This document shows, in pieces, positions 51,117 to 60,028 of a stretch of 64,000 nt of DNA; the stretch's first letter is position 1; every line of letters starts with the position of its first letter. The notes under the pieces are model-generated. The model did not search any database, was not told the origin of the DNA, and worked only from the letters and a program-made list of their open reading frames with translations. This stretch comes from Escherichia coli (GTDB lineage Bacteria > Pseudomonadota > Gammaproteobacteria > Enterobacterales > Enterobacteriaceae): assembly GCF_044324875.1 (NCBI RefSeq), contig NZ_CP172185.1, one strand, 5' to 3'. The position numbers were made by a program, and so were the translations under genes.

Positions 51117-52682
51117 TCAGTGGTAGTAGCCCGGACCACGCAGGTTTTCATGCTCTGAAGCATATGCCGGATGTTGTTCGCCCTGGCGGGATAATGGAAG
51201 CTCCAGGTTCTCCCGATGGTGACGCAGCAGATTGTCGATAAAGCGTCTGTCAGGGGCGTTATAGTGCAGGGCAACGTAACAGGCCTTTTCCAGCCGTTCC
51301 GGGCCGTATTTTTTCTGAAGTGCCAGCAGCCCCAGAACTGCACGATAAGCCAGTTCCGGATGGGGTTTTGCCTTCAGCATGGATTCAACCACCCGGCCTG
51401 TGGACGGGCCCGTACGTTTTCCCTGCTCGATCAGGCGTTCCGGTGTCCATGTCCCGTGCTGCCGGTGGCGCTCTGGCATGTGAAGCGGATTGGTTGTGTG
51501 TTTATATTCATGTGTGCTGCGCGGATGTTGCGCCACACACTGCCCCTTGTGCCAGAGCTGTACCACCGACTGCCCCGCCTTCAGTGACAGACGCTGACCG
51601 ACCAGTTCGTGTGGAACGGAGTACCAGTGACGGGCATATTCAACGTGGTAGTCAGGGCCAACCTTCACAGCTTTGTATTCCGTGTATTCATAAGGTGCCA
51701 GAGGCAGCGGAGAGAGTGCTGGCGCATCCAGTATGCGGAAGCGTTCTGCACGGGTTTGATTGCCGTACCCCTTCATTGGCCGGTTATTCATGTCTGTCAG
51801 TAACTCCCTAAGGCGCGCATTCAGCGCCCTGAGCGTGTGGAAGGTTTCATTACGGATGCGGGCAAGAAGCCATCGTTCAACGATGAGGACGCCGTTTTCT
51901 GCTTTTGGTTTATCTTTAGGTTTGCGTGGTCGGGCCGGGATGATAACCGTGCCATAGTGCTCAGCCAGTGCCTGATAACTGTCGTTGATGACAGGCTCAT
52001 ATCGATCGGCCTTTTTCACTGCGCTTCTGAGGTTATCGGGGATGAGCAGCTTCGGTACGCCGCCCAGGAAGGTCAGGCAACGGCTGTGGGCATTTAACCA
52101 TGACATCATGTCCTGACCTTCGCACGCTTCAACGTAGGTATAGTTGGACGCCCCCATTACGGCCACGAAGATTGCCACGCGGCGTATCTCACCGGTGTCC
52201 GGATTAATAACAGGAACCGTAGGACCACAGAAGTCGATAAAAAGCTTTTCGCCGGCACGATGCTCCTGGCGCATGGAGAGACGTCGCGTTTTTTTCCACT
52301 CCCGGTAGCAACGGCAGAAGTGCGAGTATCCCATCGCTTTGTTACCCGCCTGTGCCTTGTATTCCATCCACAACAGTTGCCGCGTCACACCTGGTTTTCT
52401 CATTTCCGTATCGAAGTACAACATGTCAGGCATTACAAGCTCTGATGCAAAGGTGTCTTTGGGCGGAAAAATGAGTTTCTCCAGCGTGTCATGGGATATA
52501 TCAGCAGGTAATGGCCATGACAGAGAAGAGGCTTTGAAGCGGGCAAGAACCTCAAAAACGGTTGAGGCGCTGATGTGTAACGTCAGTCCGATACAACGGT
52601 TAGTCAGCTTCTTGTCGAACTTGAGCTGAAGGATCTTAAAACAGGTTTCCATAGTGCTCCTGGATTTTCTCTTTCTGGACAT
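51117..52682 (-). CDS. istA: IS21-family transposase IstA
   Basis: N-terminal HTH then DDE integrase core; likely ATG start at about 52682 (MSRKRK..., with GGAGA RBS) or 52652 (METCFK...); the track start at 52763 is a TTG. Confidence 0.8.
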   Translation of the reverse strand: MSRKRKSRSTMETCFKILQLKFDKKLTNRCIGLTLHISASTVFEVLARFKASSLSWPLPADISHDTLEKLIFPPKDTFASELVMPDMLYFDTEMRKPGVTRQLLWMEYKAQAGNKAMGYSHFCRCYREWKKTRRLSMRQEHRAGEKLFIDFCGPTVPVINPDTGEIRRVAIFVAVMGASNYTYVEACEGQDMMSWLNAHSRCLTFLGGVPKLLIPDNLRSAVKKADRYEPVINDSYQALAEHYGTVIIPARPRKPKDKPKAENGVLIVERWLLARIRNETFHTLRALNARLRELLTDMNNRPMKGYGNQTRAERFRILDAPALSPLPLAPYEYTEYKAVKVGPDYHVEYARHWYSVPHELVGQRLSLKAGQSVVQLWHKGQCVAQHPRSTHEYKHTTNPLHMPERHRQHGTWTPERLIEQGKRTGPSTGRVVESMLKAKPHPELAYRAVLGLLALQKKYGPERLEKACYVALHYNAPDRRFIDNLLRHHRENLELPLSRQGEQHPAYASEHENLRGPGYYH

Positions 52683-53233
52683 TGACGTCTCCACTGGTTT
52701 AAACACGGCAATGGAGACTGTGGTGAAAAGAGTTAATTCCCGGAGTGACTGGCAGGATGCCAATCAATGATCGGAAGCATGCCAAATCGTGATCGATTGT
52801 GATGCCAAACTGTGATCGGAGATGGATGCCAAATCATGATCGATTCGAATGCCAAACTGCGATCGATTCAGATGCCATTTTGCATCTTACTGGTGTGAAA
52901 TTTGACCTATTATATCTTCTGCCGCCCCCTCTGGCTGTATCAAATAAACCCGCAGCAGTCGCCGCGTATTACGGACGGACGCACCGTTCCCATGCTCACT
53001 CGTCACATTCCCCGTATCAGTTTCTCTTACCGTAAGAACGGCTCTGGCTGGCGATAAAACTAACCCGGTCGGGCATTCCCACAGTCTTTAGAGAAAATGT
53101 AATTTACCCCCTGAAACGCGGGCTGTTCCCCCGTCACCTGCGCGCGAAAAACTCACCGTTTTTTGTGCACGCACGAAATCGCCCTCCGGGCGCGCCAGTA
53201 CTGGGCCGGATGGGCAAAAAGTTACTCTAAAAA

Positions 53234-53487: not shown

Positions 53488-53804
53488 GGGGGGTGCGCAA
53501 ACCGGTTACAACGGTTACAACACTCAAAAACACCACTTAACAGCATGATTTTAATGGATATTGTTTGTAACCGCTTTGCGGTTACACTGCGGTTACAACG
53601 GTTACAGGTTTCAAAAAGTACTTTATTATCAATCAATTAAAAACTTAACCTGTAACCGCCTGTAACCTAACAAAACGGTTACATGTAACCGCGTTGTAAC
53701 CGCTTTTGTAACTCATCGGACCAGTTATAATATATTGATATATAATACAAAAATAAGTAATTTTAAATTTGTAACCGTTGTAACCGCTTTGCGCACCCCC
53801 CCCC
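53488..53804. repeat. Iteron cluster (about 12 GGTTACA/TGTAACC heptamers) bounded by about 33-bp inverted repeats, with AT-rich core; candidate replication origin (ori/crr-like)
   Basis: Left arm ggggggtgcgcaaaccggttacaacggttacaac and right arm gttgtaaccgttgtaaccgctttgcgcaccccccccc are reverse complements; AT-rich segment about 53726-53770; G6 and C9 homopolymer tracts at the ends. Confidence 0.6.
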
Positions 53805-54052: not shown

Positions 54053-55057
54053 TTACTCTGCTGGCTCTTTTTCTTCGGTGATCACTATGTTGGCTACCGG
54101 GTTAAATCTCATGGCATCTGCCAGATAATCCGGTGCAAAATGTGCGTATGCCATAGTCTGCTGAATTGTCGCATGCCCAAGGATTTTTTGTAGCGCAAGA
54201 ATGTTGCCACCGTTCATCACAAAGTGACTGGCGAATGTATGCCGCAATACATGCGCAGCCTGCCCCCTCGGTAAATCGGGTTTTATTTTTTTTAATGCCC
54301 GGCAAAACTCTCTGTACTTCACATCAAACAGTCGCCCGGTTTCTTTTGTTTTTACGGCATCGCATATTTCCTGCGACACAGGCACCGTTCTTTTTCTACC
54401 GTTTTTGGTTTCCAGAAACGTTATTCTGTTATGAACTATTTGCTCTCCATGCAATCTGCTGGCCTCACTCCAGCGGGCTCCGGTACAAAGACACAAGAGC
54501 GCAACCCTTCGTTGATCTCCATTCAGCCCGTCAAGCAACAATGTGACCTCGTTTTTTGATAAAAAGGCCATTTCCCGCTGCTTTACATAAAGAACAGGAA
54601 TACCACGAACCGGATGCTCTGCATCCCACAAACCGATCTTTTTCAGGGCTGTAAACATCCCCGATAATCTGTTCATGTATCTGTTTGCTGAGGACGGCTT
54701 TAATCCTTCCGCAATTTTCTGCGATCGCCATGCAATGATTTTTAATTTGTTGAGTTCTGCCGCAAACATGTCAGCTCCAAGCTCATTAATAATTTTGCCA
54801 AGTTGCTGTTTATCCGTGTTTGCCTTTCGCCTGTGCTGACCGTGATAGACCCACCACAATTCCAGTAAATCGCTAAGCGTTCTCCGGTCGCGATAGCCCT
54901 GTATAAACTCGCGCTTTTCGGCGTTCGCTATGATGTACCGTTCAGTTGCTGTAGCTATCGATTTTTTGTCAAATATTCTTCTGATGCGCTTCCCTTTACG
55001 TCCGCATGGCCTGATATCGAGCAGCCACCGCCCATCATGCATCTTTCTGATCGGCAT
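54053..55057 (-). CDS. Tyrosine recombinase, P2/186-type integrase family
   Basis: From MPIRKMHDGRWLLDIRPCGRKGKRIRR; C-terminus GQAAHVLRHTFASHFVMNGGNILALQKILGHATIQQTMAYAHFAPDYLADAMRFNP closely resembles the recalled phage 186 integrase; start lies 2-3 nt after the primase stop. Confidence 0.8.
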   Translation of the reverse strand: MPIRKMHDGRWLLDIRPCGRKGKRIRRIFDKKSIATATERYIIANAEKREFIQGYRDRRTLSDLLELWWVYHGQHRRKANTDKQQLGKIINELGADMFAAELNKLKIIAWRSQKIAEGLKPSSANRYMNRLSGMFTALKKIGLWDAEHPVRGIPVLYVKQREMAFLSKNEVTLLLDGLNGDQRRVALLCLCTGARWSEASRLHGEQIVHNRITFLETKNGRKRTVPVSQEICDAVKTKETGRLFDVKYREFCRALKKIKPDLPRGQAAHVLRHTFASHFVMNGGNILALQKILGHATIQQTMAYAHFAPDYLADAMRFNPVANIVITEEKEPAE

Positions 55058-55059
55058 GT

Positions 55060-57753
55060 TTAACTCCCCTCCTTGTAACTGAATATCCGGCATTTCAGTA
55101 CTTCCGGCTCTCTGGCCTCGGCGACCCCTCTTCCGGCGTTTGCCTGTCTGGAGACCTCACTACGAATGGTTTTGCGGCCTGTCAAAGGTCGGGAACGTCC
55201 GGCTGCGAGCAACTCAATCATTTCGCGGTCAGTTCGGATCTCCACGCGGTGAATAGCGGCAGCCTGTGCCAGTTGCGGAATACTGATAGCAATCCCCTCG
55301 CGGCATCCCTTGCCGTAGTGGTTTACACCGTATTTTGTTATGCCGTCCAGATAGTCGAACGCCTCCCAGAACGCTATTACTTCCGGCAAGTCATCCGTTA
55401 CCGCTTTAACTTGTTCCGCTGCCATTCGTTCCAGTTCCTGGCATGTGGCATTAAGCCATTCATCCGGGATATCAATAACGCATTTCAGCGCCCTGACCAG
55501 CGCAATAAGTTGCGCGTGATTTTTGGCAATACGGGGATGGAGAATATTTTCGCAACCGCAAAGGCGGGTCGTTTCAGGCTCTGAGAGCGCCAGAAACATT
55601 TCCATAATTGCCCGTTCACGGCTGACTGCCCGATGAATAAACCCTGACACCTTCTCAACGGGGTAGAGTTCCAGTCGTCTCGCCGCCAGGCGGGTATCAG
55701 GTGAATGGCGTTTTTTATCGGTGTATATGCGTATCAGGCGCTCAATAATTGCAAGTGAGGCGTTTACCCTCGCATTCTGTGCAATCACGATAGCGCCCTT
55801 AAAATCCGGGTCATAGGTGTTGTTATTGTTGGTCTTAACGCCACGAACGCCGATACCGCCGCCGTTATAGAGGCTTTTCAGGTTATCGAAGTCAAACGCA
55901 CCTCTTTTTTGCGCATTGCCTCCCCGGTCTGCTTCAATCAGAACAACAGGTAATCCGGCGACCTGTCCAAAGGTGCGCTTCCAGCCCGCCTCTGATCCTT
56001 TGGTTGGATCAACGCCTTCATAGTTGTCACGACCGCACAACCGCCAGCAAAAATCAATCAATGTTGATTTACCCGTTCCGGGCTCCCCGGTGACTTCAAG
56101 GAAGGGGAAGGATTCTTCTTTATCCCGGATTTGTTCGCTGAACAGGGAGCCCAACCAGAAAGCCAGGGTAATAATTCCTTTTTCACCAAAAGCCAGCCAG
56201 AGATCTTCCACCCAGGACTCTGTAAACTCATCCGGTTTTTTGTAGTTAATCTGTAATGTGGGTTTTTCGCTTAATGGTTTTGCGTTTATGCCATCAATTT
56301 CAAAATAATCTTCGTCATTGATTTCATAAGTTTTTCCCTTGTAAACAGCAATATCATTAAACAGCCATGCCCCAATCGCCTTGTTGTATCCGATAAAATC
56401 CTGACCAATAACCTCTTTTATTGCGGGAAGGTCATTTTTTATTAATGCGTCAAGCTGCGTAGTCGTTCCGGTATAAATACCGCCTTTTGCCACATGCAAC
56501 AGGCGTTTTTTAAATTCAGATGCGGATGTCAATTGTCCTGATGTAAAGGTGTTTTTCACCGTAGCACCATCCGGGAACGTAACACGGAAGTAATACCATG
56601 CTTCATCCGTGTCATTATTTCGAATGTAATAAAGCGACGCTGGGTTACAGTTTGCGATTTCTTTTACTGCGCCAGATTCCTTAAGTGCAATTTTGCGCGC
56701 TTCATCCTCATCAACACTTCTCTCATTCTTGGCACGCTCTACAGCTTTCATATAGCGCTCAATGTCCAGTTTGAACCAGAAAACACGGTTATCAAAAGTA
56801 AAATGAAATTCCTTCCGCTCACGAAAGGAAAATATTATTAGCGCCTTATCTCTCGGAGATTTCGCCAGCAATAAATCACCGTAATGACGGTATCTTTTCA
56901 CATCATGGCCACGCAGCTTTCCGGCGATGTGTAAATCATTCCAGTCGCGTTTATTGTTGTTTTTACCTGGCAACGCCGCTGCCGTTCTCCAGCCGTCTTC
57001 GGCGCTGCGTTCTGCATGTTTTTTCGCGTAACGCTCACCCGCACGCCCGTTATCCAGCGCCCACACAATAACCGGACGGGGATTATCCCCGCACAGCTTC
57101 GCCAGCTCTTCCAGCGCCTTATCAGGGTAGTTCACGGCAGACATGACAGAAACGGCCGCAATGCCATTCTGGTTAAGGCTGATGGCATCAAAGATGCCCT
57201 CACAAATCCAGATTTCTTTGGCCTTGCTTAAATCTGCTCCCGGATAAGCCCACCACAACCCCTTGTAGCTGCCGGAAAAATTCGCCTTGCGCGCGAAGCG
57301 TCCCGGTCGGTCTATGATGCGCTCCCACCACACGCCGTCAGCCAGCGTAAAACGCACAGTAGCGGCCTGTTCGCCGTTTTCCTTGTCCTGGTATCGCTCC
57401 TGAGTAAATGCGCCCTTCAGTGGCCCCACAGCAATATTGCGCGCCTCCTGAAGATAAGCTGCCACCGCTGCATATGGCTCGTCTTTCGTGCTGATATAAC
57501 GATCTGACCATGATGAAAACACATCCGGGTAAAGTTCTTTGGTCAGCAGGTCTGTACCGCATTTATTTTCGCGCCCACAGTGTACGATGTACGGCCTTTC
57601 AAGGCTGGTAAACAACTCTTTCTTTCCACATTGCGGACAAACACCATACCGGAGGTAGTTATTTTCTTCTTTGAAGTTGTAATCACGGATAAGACGGTTA
57701 ATAATCTCTTTTCTGATGTCAGATTTCATATATAAAACTCCACCCCACTGCAC
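55060..57753 (-). CDS. Primase-helicase (P4 alpha-like replication protein)
   Basis: 897-aa ORF with N-terminal zinc finger (CPQCGKK...HCGRENKCG), TOPRIM-like WICEGIFDAISL and P-loop VTGEPGTGKST. Confidence 0.75.
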   Translation of the reverse strand: MQWGGVLYMKSDIRKEIINRLIRDYNFKEENNYLRYGVCPQCGKKELFTSLERPYIVHCGRENKCGTDLLTKELYPDVFSSWSDRYISTKDEPYAAVAAYLQEARNIAVGPLKGAFTQERYQDKENGEQAATVRFTLADGVWWERIIDRPGRFARKANFSGSYKGLWWAYPGADLSKAKEIWICEGIFDAISLNQNGIAAVSVMSAVNYPDKALEELAKLCGDNPRPVIVWALDNGRAGERYAKKHAERSAEDGWRTAAALPGKNNNKRDWNDLHIAGKLRGHDVKRYRHYGDLLLAKSPRDKALIIFSFRERKEFHFTFDNRVFWFKLDIERYMKAVERAKNERSVDEDEARKIALKESGAVKEIANCNPASLYYIRNNDTDEAWYYFRVTFPDGATVKNTFTSGQLTSASEFKKRLLHVAKGGIYTGTTTQLDALIKNDLPAIKEVIGQDFIGYNKAIGAWLFNDIAVYKGKTYEINDEDYFEIDGINAKPLSEKPTLQINYKKPDEFTESWVEDLWLAFGEKGIITLAFWLGSLFSEQIRDKEESFPFLEVTGEPGTGKSTLIDFCWRLCGRDNYEGVDPTKGSEAGWKRTFGQVAGLPVVLIEADRGGNAQKRGAFDFDNLKSLYNGGGIGVRGVKTNNNNTYDPDFKGAIVIAQNARVNASLAIIERLIRIYTDKKRHSPDTRLAARRLELYPVEKVSGFIHRAVSRERAIMEMFLALSEPETTRLCGCENILHPRIAKNHAQLIALVRALKCVIDIPDEWLNATCQELERMAAEQVKAVTDDLPEVIAFWEAFDYLDGITKYGVNHYGKGCREGIAISIPQLAQAAAIHRVEIRTDREMIELLAAGRSRPLTGRKTIRSEVSRQANAGRGVAEAREPEVLKCRIFSYKEGS

Positions 57754-57777: not shown

Positions 57778-58077
57778 TTACTCGTTACTTATTGCTTTGG
57801 CAATCCCGGCGGTTTCAGCACTATGCCATGAAAAAATTCCGCCAGAAGTATGCATTCCTGACTTAATCACTCGTAATTCCCGATAAAGAATGTTAGTTAA
57901 TGATTCCATTTCATTAATTTGCACTGGCATTCTCTCACTGGTATTAATTTCACCTGTCAATGCTGAAAGGAGCGCAATAACATTTATTACATCTTCAAGA
58001 TTCTGAATGGAATCTTCCGTGAAAAAACCAGCGTATTCTTTTTTGTATATATTGCGGATATTCTGATTTTCAGACAT
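57778..58077 (-). CDS. Hypothetical protein (99 aa), satellite small-ORF operon
   Basis: ORF co-directional and closely spaced with the primase; no recognisable domain. Confidence 0.4.
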   Translation of the reverse strand: MSENQNIRNIYKKEYAGFFTEDSIQNLEDVINVIALLSALTGEINTSERMPVQINEMESLTNILYRELRVIKSGMHTSGGIFSWHSAETAGIAKAISNE

Positions 58078-58144
58078 AAAAACTCCCCGACCCGTTAAGA
58101 TCGAAATATAAATTTAATTCAGTTATCAGTTGGTAATTCGGTAA

Positions 58145-58363
58145 TCAGTCGGAAAGCTGCGTCACCTTCAACGCTTTGAAATGTGTCATTCCCAGCTCTT
58201 CCAGCCCTTCGGCTGCGCGGCGTATGGCTTCGCCCGGTCCCGTTCCGTATACCGTTGCATGTGCATGTTTGGTTAACCCACGTTTATTAACGGCATAACC
58301 CAACACAAAGAAACGTTTTTCACCACTGCCATTATTTTTACGGGATATTGAACGGCTTTTCAT
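58145..58363 (-). CDS. Hypothetical protein (72 aa)
   Basis: Start overlaps the stop of the upstream ORF (ATGA); operon context. Confidence 0.4.
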   Translation of the reverse strand: MKSRSISRKNNGSGEKRFFVLGYAVNKRGLTKHAHATVYGTGPGEAIRRAAEGLEELGMTHFKALKVTQLSD

Positions 58364-58548
58364 TTCTTCACCTTTACCACTGATGCTGTGAGTTCTTCTT
58401 CTGGCAATTGATATTTCGGCGCAATTTCTTCCGTATACCTGATAGCGTCCCTTGCCGCTTTTCCTTTTGATTTATATTTACGTATCGTGTGGAAGTTTTC
58501 TTCCTCTCCTGTTACCACATTACGCAATTTAATATGAATCTCGTACAT
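58360..58548 (-). CDS. Hypothetical protein (~62 aa)
   Basis: Likely start MYEIHIKLRNVV; track ORF 58360..58578 extended; operon context. Confidence 0.4.
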   Translation of the reverse strand: MYEIHIKLRNVVTGEEENFHTIRKYKSKGKAARDAIRYTEEIAPKYQLPEEELTASVVKVKK

Positions 58549-58550
58549 CG

Positions 58551-58811
58551 TTACCCCTCCATGATTTTTACTGCGCATTTGTGGGTTAATCGCCCCTGTT
58601 TGTCATTGCGGGAATATGCCATACGACAGGCATCACGCCATACATCGTCATAAGTCGGATATTCCCGGGAATGAATCATCTGGCGAACGTCGCCGTTCTG
58701 GTAGTTAATCAGGGTGATAAGGAGCTTAAACATGGCACGCCTCCCGGACACGGATACGGGCAACAAAGACCAGACGAGATGCCGGAAGCAGGGCGCGCGC
58801 TTCGCGCTCAC
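58551..58811 (-). CDS. Hypothetical protein (60-86 aa)
   Basis: ORF in the operon between alpA and the primase; overlaps the next ORF, exact start unclear. Confidence 0.3.
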   Translation of the reverse strand: MSAKRAPCFRHLVWSLLPVSVSGRRAMFKLLITLINYQNGDVRQMIHSREYPTYDDVWRDACRMAYSRNDKQGRLTHKCAVKIMEG

Positions 58812-59253
58812 TGGCAGCGGTAACGGTATGAAGGCGGATATTTTTACCGTGGCACTGCATAAAGCGCCAGATAAAATCAGGGCGTGTTGATATAGCCATT
58901 TTGGCGGCTCCTTCTACTGATTTACGGAGTCTCGCCAGCACGCTGCTAAACATGGTGGCGGGACGTAACAGGGTTAGCAGACTGGCGTAGAAGAAACCAG
59001 CGAGCGCAAAGGCTCCCCCATTACGCCCCGCCATAATACGGGGTAGGGTGGAATTACGGGCACAAAAAAACCGCATTACGGAAATATAGCGGCTACCCGC
59101 TTCTACTATCAGGCTGCTAAACCCGGCACCCGCTTTATGAGGTGCGGGCAAACGATACGCCATGACAAAAAAGCGAGTCAAGCAATATTGCAAATTATTT
59201 TTGCGCGATTGCGCTGAGTGATTGATTTTTAAGAGTAAAAAAGTCATAATCAT
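58726..59253 (-). CDS. Hypothetical protein (up to 175 aa)
   Basis: Longest ORF in the alpA-proximal part of the operon; start uncertain; overlaps 58551..58811 in another frame (possible frameshift or overlapping genes). Confidence 0.3.
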   Translation of the reverse strand: MIMTFLLLKINHSAQSRKNNLQYCLTRFFVMAYRLPAPHKAGAGFSSLIVEAGSRYISVMRFFCARNSTLPRIMAGRNGGAFALAGFFYASLLTLLRPATMFSSVLARLRKSVEGAAKMAISTRPDFIWRFMQCHGKNIRLHTVTAASEREARALLPASRLVFVARIRVREACHV

Positions 59254-59806
59254 TTCTGGCTATTGTTTCTTATTGTTGGTTTCAGGTGCACTAAATGCAC
59301 ATCCTTGACTGGTTGGCTCGCTGGCTTTAGCGAGCTTCTTTTTTGCTCTGCTGTCAGTGATCGGCCTCCTTCCCTCACATGTAGTCATGTGCTCATTCCA
59401 GTCAGGTGGATAATGCTGTATTACCGGACATCCGGTTATGATGTTTAAAGCGTTTGTTTGTTTATGCCACGTGGAGAATATACCCCCACCGCCATTACTT
59501 GTATTTATCATAACAGTTCACCCAATTCGGTTAATGTAACCGGAATAACTCAATTTCATACACTGTAAATAAATGCTGATTTTAAACTTAGCTCCTTGGA
59601 ATATATTTCTTACGTGTGACGCACAGGTGAAAATATCCCTCTGATAGTCCATTTTCTTTTATTTTGTCACATCTGTTTACTCCGGTTCCCTTAACAAGGG
59701 TAGAGCATCTTTTAAACCATGAATGCATCTTCGGTTAAGTGATGTTTCTTATTGTATGAAATATTTAGGCGCATATCGCGCCATGCTGACTATAAAATGA
59801 AAATAA

Positions 59807-60028
59807 TTAAGCCTGAAAACGTTGTTGTTTTCTTTCTTCTATCCAGTCGATAATTTCCTCTTCAACCCATGCAACCGCACGAGGGCCTATTTTTATTGGT
59901 TTGGGGAATATATCAGATTTTATATCTTCGTAAATTCGAGCTCTTGATCTCCCTGTGATTTCAATGACTCTGGGGAGTCTTATTAATTTTTGAATCCGCC
60001 TTTCGCTGGTCTGTGAGTATGCTGACAT
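59807..60028 (-). CDS. alpA: AlpA-family transcriptional regulator / excisionase
   Basis: 73-aa ORF; LIRLPRVIEITGRSRARIYEDIKSDIFPKPIKIGPRAVAWVEEEIIDWI matches the AlpA HTH consensus. Confidence 0.8.
   Translation of the reverse strand: MSAYSQTSERRIQKLIRLPRVIEITGRSRARIYEDIKSDIFPKPIKIGPRAVAWVEEEIIDWIEERKQQRFQA

Follow-up and report, generated by a model that had tools for sequence, protein, structure and literature searches.

A probable immunity-controlled early operon of P4 type in a satellite prophage integrated at argW of Escherichia coli

The left operon of satellite phage P4 is arranged in the order PLE, seqA, cI RNA, seqC, nested eta/kil, epsilon, orf151, cnr and alpha. The immI region of phages P1 and P7 consists of the c4 RNA, the paired targets a1/b1 and a2/b2, icd and ant. 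In the heteroimmunity of P1 and P7, immunity specificity is set by loop and target sequences, as it is in the locus described here. A further relevant locus is isrK-orf45-anrP of Salmonella Gifsy-1, in which an isrK-type leader with a terminator precedes a short ORF coupled to downstream genes; it controls the antirepressor-like AnrP, and IsrK acts there as an activator in trans (PMC4825925). The isrK and C4 RNA families correspond to seqA and CI of P4, the mechanism of eta and kil has been described (PMC3632133, PMC4825925, PMC10111431), and P4 eta provides the precedent for a long open frame of the sort found here (PMC10111431). The biology of such an operon is therefore largely known, its mechanism having already been established from P4 and P1.

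Here we present the analysis of a locus in a 64,000-nt stretch of Escherichia coli DNA (the window), which holds a satellite island at tRNA-Arg (argW). All features discussed below are on the minus strand, in the interval from alpA to a toprim primase gene, where an earlier note, made from the letters of the sequence, had placed five small ORFs. These are present as maximal ORFs at 57778-58077 (99 aa), 58145-58363 (72 aa), 58360-58578, 58551-58811 and 58726-59253 (175 aa). The PGAP annotation (NCBI) of related E. coli genomes has the same five coding sequences, every one of the five is preceded by a Shine-Dalgarno sequence, and all have same-length homologues. Together with pN/pS values of 0.14-0.55, these features establish that the five ORFs exceed what chance would produce. 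The note's reading, that closely packed genes form an operon in the early part of a satellite, is supported, with the P4 left operon as the right comparison, and a lack of conservation among related elements, which it had named as the finding that would count against it, is not observed, since the ORFs are conserved there. We consider it likely, with a probability of roughly 0.8, that a P4-type satellite prophage is integrated at argW and that the region is its early ("left") operon, under immunity control.

On its upstream side the operon is flanked by a P4 vis-like alpA gene (59807..60028; Pfam Phage_AlpA PF05930, E 5.5e-17), the product of which is 35% identical to P4 Vis (E 8e-13). At the other end lies a Toprim/DUF5906-type primase of 889 aa (55060..57729, from ATG 57729; Pfam Toprim_2, 5.6e-13; phrog_1139 DNA primase, 2e-297). 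Only 48 nt separate the 99-aa ORF (ORF1) from this gene, and the operon of the four small downstream ORFs (ORF4 to ORF1 in the order of transcription) probably ends with the primase. P4 eta is coupled to the alpA homologue, whereas the 175-codon ORF of the window is not adjacent to alpA: about 550 nt lie between the alpA stop (59807) and ATG 59253, and the sole ORF there is not conserved in frame. A P2-type late promoter motif, TGT-N12-ACA, has no copy upstream of or near alpA and occurs in the window at chance frequency, so this motif did not identify an immunity-insensitive upstream promoter.

Like the P4 left operon, the locus runs from alpA/vis through an internal promoter, an isrK-type leader, a C4-type RNA and a target over the kil ribosome-binding site to a long open frame in which an Icd-like kil is nested, and continues by an 8-nt coupling overlap into small ORFs and then the primase; the same Rfam and NCBIfam models match both elements. 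The locus departs from P4 in its four downstream proteins, none of them related to epsilon, orf151 or cnr, and in its primase, which is of another family (phrog_1139, with only ~30 bits to alpha). Where P4 has sid/psu, the island has a P2-family capsid gene; searching the literature for P4-like satellites with a capsid gene turned up nothing relevant. As in immI of P1 and P7, the C4 RNA has two recognition segments and its targets are duplicated, the downstream one lying over the icd ribosome-binding site, and the first ORF is Icd-like and coupled to the genes that follow. The locus differs from immI in its cargo, with small proteins and a primase where immI has the Ant antirepressor, and in the nesting of the Icd-like ORF within a longer open frame, which is a P4 feature. 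The leader with its terminator and the coupled short ORF recall Gifsy-1, although the genes controlled there are, as noted above, of the antirepressor kind.

The putative counterpart of PLE is a predicted sigma-70 promoter at 59152..59181 (minus strand; TTGACT, an 18-nt spacer and TATCGT, 9/12 consensus matches), which sits within the 175-codon ORF and has a predicted transcript start at ~59145. The match to the isrK model starts at 59145 and defines a leader RNA of the isrK / P4 seqA type (59064..59145, minus strand; Rfam RF01394, 50.6 bits against a gathering score of 50). The score of this match falls right at the gathering score. The same model also matches nine relatives of the element and P4 itself (60.8 bits). 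Within the leader, on the minus strand, are the targets a1 (UUAGCAG, 59114-59120) and b1 (GUAGAAG, 59100-59106), as well as a terminator hairpin with a U7 run (59064-59094).

Downstream of the leader lies an 88-nt antisense immunity RNA of the C4 / P4 CI type (58951..59038, minus strand; Rfam RF01695, 73.3 bits against a gathering score of 45, E 3e-13). For comparison, the CI RNA of P4 scores 74.9 bits with this model, and the relatives of the window element match it too. Folding of the region gave a minimum free energy of -45 kcal/mol (z -5.7), with equal stability in none of 200 shuffles; the C4 structure is supported by pairing in 95.6% of cells and by double changes at 7 pairs, a result that 0 of 500 shuffles match. 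The RNA has a b' loop, CUUCUAC (58987-58993, minus strand), and an a' single strand, CUGCUAA (58974-58980, minus strand). The downstream target region, equivalent to P4 seqC and to P1 a2-b2, was read from the sequence at 58907..58951 (minus strand), shows the complementarity and covariation described below, and contains a2 (UUAGCAG, 58943-58949, minus strand) and b2 (GUAGAAG, 58911-58917, minus strand). The latter overlaps AAGGAG (58908-58913), the Shine-Dalgarno sequence of a kil-like ORF, 8 nt before its ATG at 58899. Complementarity to the C4 RNA is perfect over 7 nt at all four target sites (a1, b1, a2 and b2). The window thus contains a C4/CI antisense RNA with the secondary structure of its family and with targets both upstream and downstream.

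Alignment of 11 elements revealed that the C4 loops and both target pairs vary in concert. In the matrix of matches, the cognate pairs on the diagonal have 7-9 nt of perfect complementarity, as against 2-5 nt for non-cognate pairs. Six b types and two a types occur among the 11 elements, in 7 combinations. The RNA elements and their covariation are direct observations, and they mean that satellites at 85-99% DNA identity carry at least seven immunity-RNA specificity combinations, the changes in each being matched at three sites. Nature here offers a clean example of the diversification of RNA-based self-recognition.

How the operon would be controlled can be proposed by following P4 and P1, and it is on their precedent that the termination and processing steps rest. 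In the prophage state, the constitutive promoter at ~59152-59181 would start a transcript with the isrK/seqA-like leader, and this transcript would be processed, by RNase P in P4/P1-type modules, to the 88-nt C4/CI-type RNA. The single-stranded CUUCUAC and CUGCUAA segments of that RNA would pair with a1/b1 upstream and a2/b2 downstream. As b2 overlaps the ribosome-binding site of the 57-aa Icd/Kil-like ORF, pairing there would block kil translation. Pairing would also lead to premature termination, in this model Rho-dependent, leaving the translationally coupled ORF4, ORF3, ORF2, ORF1 and primase silent. Escape would require transcription from further upstream, in which case ribosomes would read through the RNA region in the eta-like frame, along all of its 175 codons, and thereby override termination and turn the operon on. 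A test of C/G skew for a Rho utilisation site found a mild C>G stretch within kil, a weak signal.

The four small proteins encoded between kil and the primase are genuine gene products under purifying selection (pN/pS 0.14-0.55). They form narrow families of same-length homologues found only in satellites of the Enterobacterales, and among complete E. coli genomes ~1% have them; 65 E. coli genomes carry the cassette. When 1.84 billion representatives were searched exhaustively with HMMER, using a fused four-protein query, only 32 narrow matches resulted. ORF1-ORF4 had no matches in Pfam, NCBIfam, PHROGs or PADLOC, nor in profile searches against PDB sequences, and no database gives a name to any of them. 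In a more distant relative (L021), the order of the four-gene cassette is kept beside a different primase type and a P4-type CI RNA. A further 80 more distant primase loci (41-53% identity) contain no cassette genes and so provide no functional context.

ORF4 (58551..58733, minus strand; 60 aa, MFKLLITLINYQ..., with Shine-Dalgarno GGGAGG upstream) has same-length homologues and a pN/pS of 0.47, and was predicted by AlphaFold2 to adopt a strand-strand-helix-strand-strand fold (pLDDT 85-91). ORF3 (58360..58548, minus strand; 62 aa, MYEIHIKLRNV..., with Shine-Dalgarno GGAGGGG upstream) starts 2 nt after the ORF4 stop; it too has homologues, with a pN/pS of 0.45. The ORF3 and ORF4 families align in hhalign with a probability of 83.6% (E 8e-6), and the L021 copy of ORF3 also matches the ORF4 HMM (3.4e-7); the two are paralogues. 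ORF2 (58145..58363, minus strand; 72 aa), which overlaps ORF3 by ATGA, is the most conserved of the four (pN/pS 0.14). Its homologues come from E. coli, Salmonella, Klebsiella and Yersinia, and every one is annotated as hypothetical. The predicted structure of ORF2 has an N-terminal tail, basic and disordered, ahead of a strand-strand-helix-strand domain (pLDDT ~90), and in the models the protein shares this small fold with ORF3 and ORF4, while comparison with either of them found no sequence relation. Across the AlphaFold2 domains as a whole, pLDDT was ~73-91. The models of ORF4, ORF3 and ORF2 come from one artificial fusion with Gly-Ser linkers; the individual domains were confident, and the packing between them was not (pTM 0.29). 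An initial idea, that ORF2-4 have a HicB-N / UPF0150-like antitoxin fold, was dropped when profile and structural comparison gave no such match.

ORF1 (57778..58077, minus strand; 99 aa; pS 0.44, pN/pS 0.55) is predicted to form a helical hairpin. Its alignment (A8) has conserved ends and a hypervariable centre at approximately residues 33-58, and its homologues fall into 50 clusters at 90% identity, of which none is named and none has a Pfam domain. The AlphaFold2 model is weak (pLDDT 64), and a Foldseek search against the PDB returned generic helical hairpins only, with no fold matches.

ORF4, ORF3, ORF2 and ORF1 are real early products of this satellite lineage and specific to it, for which functions can be suggested from P4 and P1 precedent or from gene position. 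None of the four is similar to P4 epsilon, orf151 or cnr. For ORF1 and epsilon (PF25738), there was no Pfam match, hhalign gave a probability of 0.3% and blastp found nothing. In related loci (L017-L020), the gene in the place of ORF1, directly ahead of a primase of the same family and after homologues of ORF4 and ORF2, is a homologue of epsilon (PF25738). Our best guess is that ORF1 may be a specificity-determining protein that engages the helper phage, performing the job of epsilon without being its kin. Being hypervariable and interchangeable by position with epsilon, ORF1 is therefore a tractable candidate for the way in which such satellites activate helpers. More tentatively, ORF1 could found a new family of helper-engaging satellite proteins that displaces the unrelated epsilon, with the central hairpin setting which helper repressor or factor is targeted, and with ORF4, ORF3 and ORF2 as new early effectors. 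If this were true, the lineage, whose immunity-RNA specificities are shuffled 6 x 2, would offer a compact model of the independent diversification of self-recognition and helper recognition. The four conserved early proteins are in any case candidates for experiment.

For the four small proteins, the functions that the earlier note had named as frequent among such genes (regulation, helper interference, anti-defence) are hypotheses. Two other roles for the small proteins have to be weighed. They could control the replication or copy number of the satellite through the primase or the origin, with ORF1 as a functional analogue of Cnr (P4 ORF106) and no manipulation of the helper, and this we likewise regard as a possibility of low probability. 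The small genes do directly precede the primase, as cnr immediately precedes alpha in P4, and the cassette is found with two different primase types. On the other hand, ORF1-ORF4 lack DUF5375/Cnr similarity (no Pfam match to P4 Cnr and nothing in blastp), the type of ORF1 tracks no segment of the primase (Spearman rho <=0.44), and what replaces ORF1 in L017-L020 is an epsilon homologue, not a cnr homologue. Alternatively, the proteins could be anti-defence or host-takeover inhibitors, that is, phage-type binders of host or helper enzymes. The hypervariability of ORF1 and a gene placement suited to early expression would fit such inhibitors. We find the idea rather doubtful, as structural scores are low and the fold is a common one, PADLOC and PHROGs contain no matches, and the strong purifying selection on ORF2 is unusual for a protein in an arms race.

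The long ORF at the head of the operon (58726..59253, minus strand; 175 codons) resembles P4 eta in that its frame is kept open over the RNA genes. This frame has no stops in any of the 11 variants, the other frames having 5-11, and among shuffles just 0.4% leave it open; its register relative to the C4 RNA is that of P4 despite indels. The earlier note had found none of the ORFs recognisable, which is incorrect for this one: its last 57 codons match the Icd-like model NCBIfam NF033153, and the Rfam C4 and isrK matches lie within it. The Icd-like model covers just these last 57 codons, which form a nested kil / Icd-like ORF (58726..58899, minus strand; 57 aa, MAISTRPDFIW...) that shares the frame and the stop of the long ORF. 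The score is 55.7 bits against a cut-off of 25 (P4 Kil, 76.1 bits), pN/pS is 0.30 and the relatives are 94-100% identical. The note's suggestion of nested genes was in this respect right by accident: a kil-like gene is nested in the eta-like ORF, in the same frame and over the RNA genes, and the pair it had in mind, 58551-58811 and 58726-59253, is not nested.

It is very unlikely that the 175-aa ORF (173 aa in PGAP) is an ordinary gene, an Ash/"cI repressor"-like or long Icd-like one, whose whole sequence makes a functional protein. Such a gene would agree with the PGAP call of a 173-aa Icd-like protein, with the PHROG profiles named "transcriptional repressor" that align over residues 29-174, and with the open frame kept by all relatives. 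Over codons 1-118, however, pN/pS is 0.89 and the variable columns are spread 25/29/28 by codon position, with no periodicity, so that this part of the ORF bears no coding signature or protein-level constraint and is occupied by the RNA genes. Variation falls exactly on the RNA pairing sites, which co-vary in three places; two Rfam RNA families fill the segment, and the predicted promoter is inside the ORF. Moreover, both the PHROG families and Pfam Phage_ASH (PF10554) go back to the old "cI ORF137" annotation of P4, which overlaps the CI RNA. Phage_ASH matches P4 eta and the L021 ORF; unlike them, the window ORF remains unmatched at E values up to 1. The reading of an RNA-immunity operon with an eta-like frame corrects a widely repeated annotation, in which the "173-aa Icd-like protein", the "Ash" family and the "cI transcriptional repressor" are mostly translations of the RNA-immunity system; the real gene under the "173-aa Icd-like protein" label is the nested 57-aa ORF.

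The earlier note had also drawn attention to the overlap in different frames between 58551..58811 and 58726..59253. This 86-nt overlap is an artefact of choosing the most upstream GTG as the start. All ORF4 homologues begin with MFKL/MYKL; in the window this start corresponds to ATG 58733, and the real overlap with the kil stop is therefore 8 nt (ATGTTTAA), the same length as at the kil/epsilon junction of P4. A programmed ribosomal frameshift joining the two ORFs, or substantial nesting in different frames, either of which the note had taken the shared 86 nt of the maximal ORFs to suggest, is highly improbable given this coupling overlap of P4 length, the start of all family members at ATG 58733 behind a Shine-Dalgarno sequence of its own, and the absence of a conserved upstream extension of the downstream frame in homologues and distant relatives, in which there is little or none (stop to stop, 65 codons in L017 and 81 codons for a 63-aa protein in L021). 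The start of the ORF at 58360-58578 likewise moves, its true position being ATG 58548.

The 175-codon ORF at 58726-59253 (minus strand), upstream of four smaller ORFs, is an RNA immunity module together with a short nested gene. Two Rfam RNAs fall within it, a C4 antisense RNA (58951-59038, minus; 73.3 bits, gathering score 45) and an isrK-type leader RNA (59064-59145, minus; 50.6 bits, gathering score 50). A consensus-like promoter is predicted on the same strand at 59181-59152, with a predicted transcription start at ~59145, the first position of the isrK match. The C4 segment (-45 kcal/mol, z -5.7) adopts the family structure and was equalled in stability by none of 200 shuffles; aligned with ten relatives, including P4, 95.6% of cells are paired, with double changes at seven pairs, matched in none of 500 shuffles. 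GUAGAAG, the complement of its hairpin loop CUUCUAC, occurs at two target sites, b1 in the leader and b2 downstream (58911-58917), the latter overlapping the AAGGAG ribosome-binding site of the nested 57-aa ORF. A single-stranded segment, CUGCUAA, is likewise complementary to UUAGCAG at a1 in the leader and at a2 (58943-58949). Most prominent among the variable positions across 11 closely related elements are these pairing sites, with a three-way covariation of loops and both targets; there are six b types and two a types in seven combinations, and perfect complementarity spans 7-9 nt in cognate pairs versus 2-5 nt in non-cognate ones.

Within the long ORF, the match to the NCBIfam Icd-like model is confined to the final 57 codons (58726-58899); this nested kil-like gene is 94-100% identical among relatives, with a pN/pS of 0.30. 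Codons 1-118 are without coding signature: variable columns are spread 25/29/28 over the codon positions, and the pN/pS of 0.89 exceeds that of both other frames of the segment (0.68-0.78). The long frame has no stops and is open in 11/11 variants, while the other frames contain 5-11 stops and 0.4% of shuffles stay open. Moreover, its register relative to the terminator U-run and the C4 RNA is identical to that of P4 despite offsetting indels. Thus, the long ORF has probably been selected to be translatable, not for its protein sequence. The 550-nt spacer between alpA and the long ORF holds an 83-codon ORF (59260-59511, minus) that stops 6 nt short of ATG 59253; +2, +3 and -11 indels disrupt its frame in two related loci (L009 and L012), PGAP does not call it, and it may be translated spacer only.

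The same models find their counterparts in phage P4, C4 matching the CI RNA (74.9 bits) and isrK the PLE leader (60.8 bits). The old "cI ORF137" coding sequence contains the CI RNA, and the PLE leader is directly upstream of that ORF. P4 Kil (65 aa) scores 76 bits against the Icd-like model that also matches the 57-aa ORF, and P4 eta has a Pfam Phage_ASH match over the segment overlapping the RNAs. The isrK and C4 RNAs are structural homologues of P4 seqA and CI, and P4 CI is processed from the leader and pairs with seqA and seqC, resulting in termination of replication operon transcription (PMC3632133, PMC4825925). In addition, the P4 promoter lies inside eta; read-through allows translation of Kil, a truncated form of Eta, and full-length Eta, translated solely from an upstream promoter, prevents termination by its translation (PMC10111431, summarising Forti et al. 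1999). By analogy, the region fits this eta/kil/CI model, although alpA and the long ORF are not contiguous as they are in P4. Pfam Phage_ASH (PF10554) and the "transcriptional repressor" PHROGs phrog_1743, phrog_6928 and phrog_6196 are largely the translated seqA/CI RNA region of P4 (L016, 8168-8584). PF10554 serves as the "epsilon" marker in PMC8628076, but the true P4 epsilon is PF25738.

All five maximal ORFs listed in the earlier note were recovered by ORF calling, but two of the starts were misplaced (58811 and 58578) and the 175-codon ORF is composite. The frame at 58551-58811 actually starts at ATG 58733, preceded by GGGAGG, to give ORF4 (58551-58733, 60 aa), the homologues of which all begin MFKL, MYKL or MxFKL; the supposed 86-nt out-of-frame overlap with 58726-59253 therefore shrinks to 8 nt (ATGTTTAA). 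In P4, the kil stop and epsilon start also overlap by 8 nt. Similarly, the frame at 58360-58578 starts at ATG 58548 (ORF3, 58360-58548, 62 aa). With ORF2 (58145-58363, 72 aa) and ORF1 (57778-58077, 99 aa), the spacing from kil through the primase is -8, +2, -4, +67 and +48 nt, with coupling overlaps and a Shine-Dalgarno sequence at every start.

ORF1-ORF4 are real genes, and the small proteins are conserved, with pN/pS values of 0.55 (ORF1), 0.14 (ORF2), 0.45 (ORF3) and 0.47 (ORF4). In related E. coli argW islands, 92-98% identical, PGAP annotates exactly five CDS in the interval, one as a 173-aa "Icd-like" protein and the other four as hypothetical. ORF1-ORF4 had no match in Pfam, NCBIfam, PHROGs, PADLOC or PDB sequences; 1.84 billion representatives, searched exhaustively, gave only 32 matches, each similar in length to the matching ORF, and wider searches found homologues in E. 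coli, Salmonella, Klebsiella and Yersinia, every one annotated as hypothetical. The four-gene cassette is present in 65 of 5426 complete E. coli genomes. Its order is kept in the related locus L021 (63, 64, 76 and 121 aa), after a P4-type CI/eta module and before a different primase type. Judged by their sequences, ORF4 and ORF3 are paralogues (hhalign probability 83.6%, E 8e-6, full length), and the L021 ORF3 homologue also matches the ORF4 HMM. ORF2 has no sequence similarity to either; AlphaFold2, run on an artificial ORF4-ORF3-ORF2 fusion, predicted strand-strand-helix-strand in all three (pLDDT ~73-91).

ORF1, predicted at low confidence to be a helical hairpin (pLDDT 64), has conserved motifs at its N-terminus (YxGFFTE, then LxDVIN) and C-terminus (RELxxIKSGMHxSGGIFSW) flanking a hypervariable centre with indels. 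At 0.44, its pS exceeds the values for ORF2-ORF4 (0.11-0.20) by a factor of two to four, which points to a shuffling of old alleles; ORF1 type tracks with neither immunity type nor any primase segment. In four related loci (L017-L020), homologues of ORF4 and ORF2 are followed in the operon by a gene clearly homologous to P4 epsilon (PF25738), which precedes a primase of the same family as here, so that epsilon occupies the position of ORF1. ORF3 is absent from these loci, no kil-like gene was detected in the sequence examined, and no C4 RNA was found in L018, the one locus of the four run with the RNA models. Neither epsilon nor cnr shows detectable similarity to ORF1. From its position and variability, ORF1 could be a functional analogue of epsilon acting on the helper phage; alternatively, any of the four small proteins may have a role in replication control or anti-defence. 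Upstream of the L017-L020 operon are ORFs of 260 and 132 aa (L018 62-1178), by eye putatively Bro/antirepressor-like and LuxR-type HTH, respectively; portal and terminase genes are also present in L017.

On the precedent of P4 and P1, processing of the leader would release the C4 RNA, the pairing of which would block kil translation and cause premature termination, so that neither the primase nor ORF4 to ORF1 would be expressed in the lysogen; the block would be overridden when transcripts from upstream are translated in the eta-like frame. In architecture this is an already known type, the antisense immunity system of P4/P1 together with eta/kil. New in detail are how extensively immunity types are combined among near-identical satellites, four protein families without a name, and the apparent replacement of epsilon by a hypervariable protein unrelated to it.

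The island lies at tRNA-Arg(CCU) (62080-62154, minus), which adjoins yfdC; on the same strand follow a P4-type integrase (60639-61943), alpA (59807-60028), the operon (57778-59253) and the toprim primase (55060-57729). A second tyrosine recombinase gene (54053-55093, minus; Int_N and Phage_integrase domains) overlaps the primase 3' end and is kept in the related loci L001, L002 and L021. Directly downstream of it, GGTTACAA / TTGTAACCG repeats in both orientations cluster at 53503-53793 and probably serve the satellite primase as an iteron-type origin or crr-like site. An IS21-family element (50345-52763, minus), between a 90-aa ORF and the Ogr/Delta gene, codes for IstA (548 aa, rve and Mu-transposase C domains) and IstB (332 aa) and is not present in the related islands L001 and L002. 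Farther along, sid and psu are missing, and in their place (47618-50230, minus) are an Ogr/Delta zinc finger, a 236-aa coiled-coil protein and a P2-family major capsid homologue (Pfam Phage_cap_P2, 1.5e-73, residues 179-466) with a long N-terminal extension outside the capsid domain. A capsid gene is unusual for a P4-type satellite, and our literature search found no paper on one. A MazE/MazF-type toxin-antitoxin pair (46982-47574, plus) is located at the far island end, and a 2637-aa ORF (37817-45730, plus) lies directly outside.
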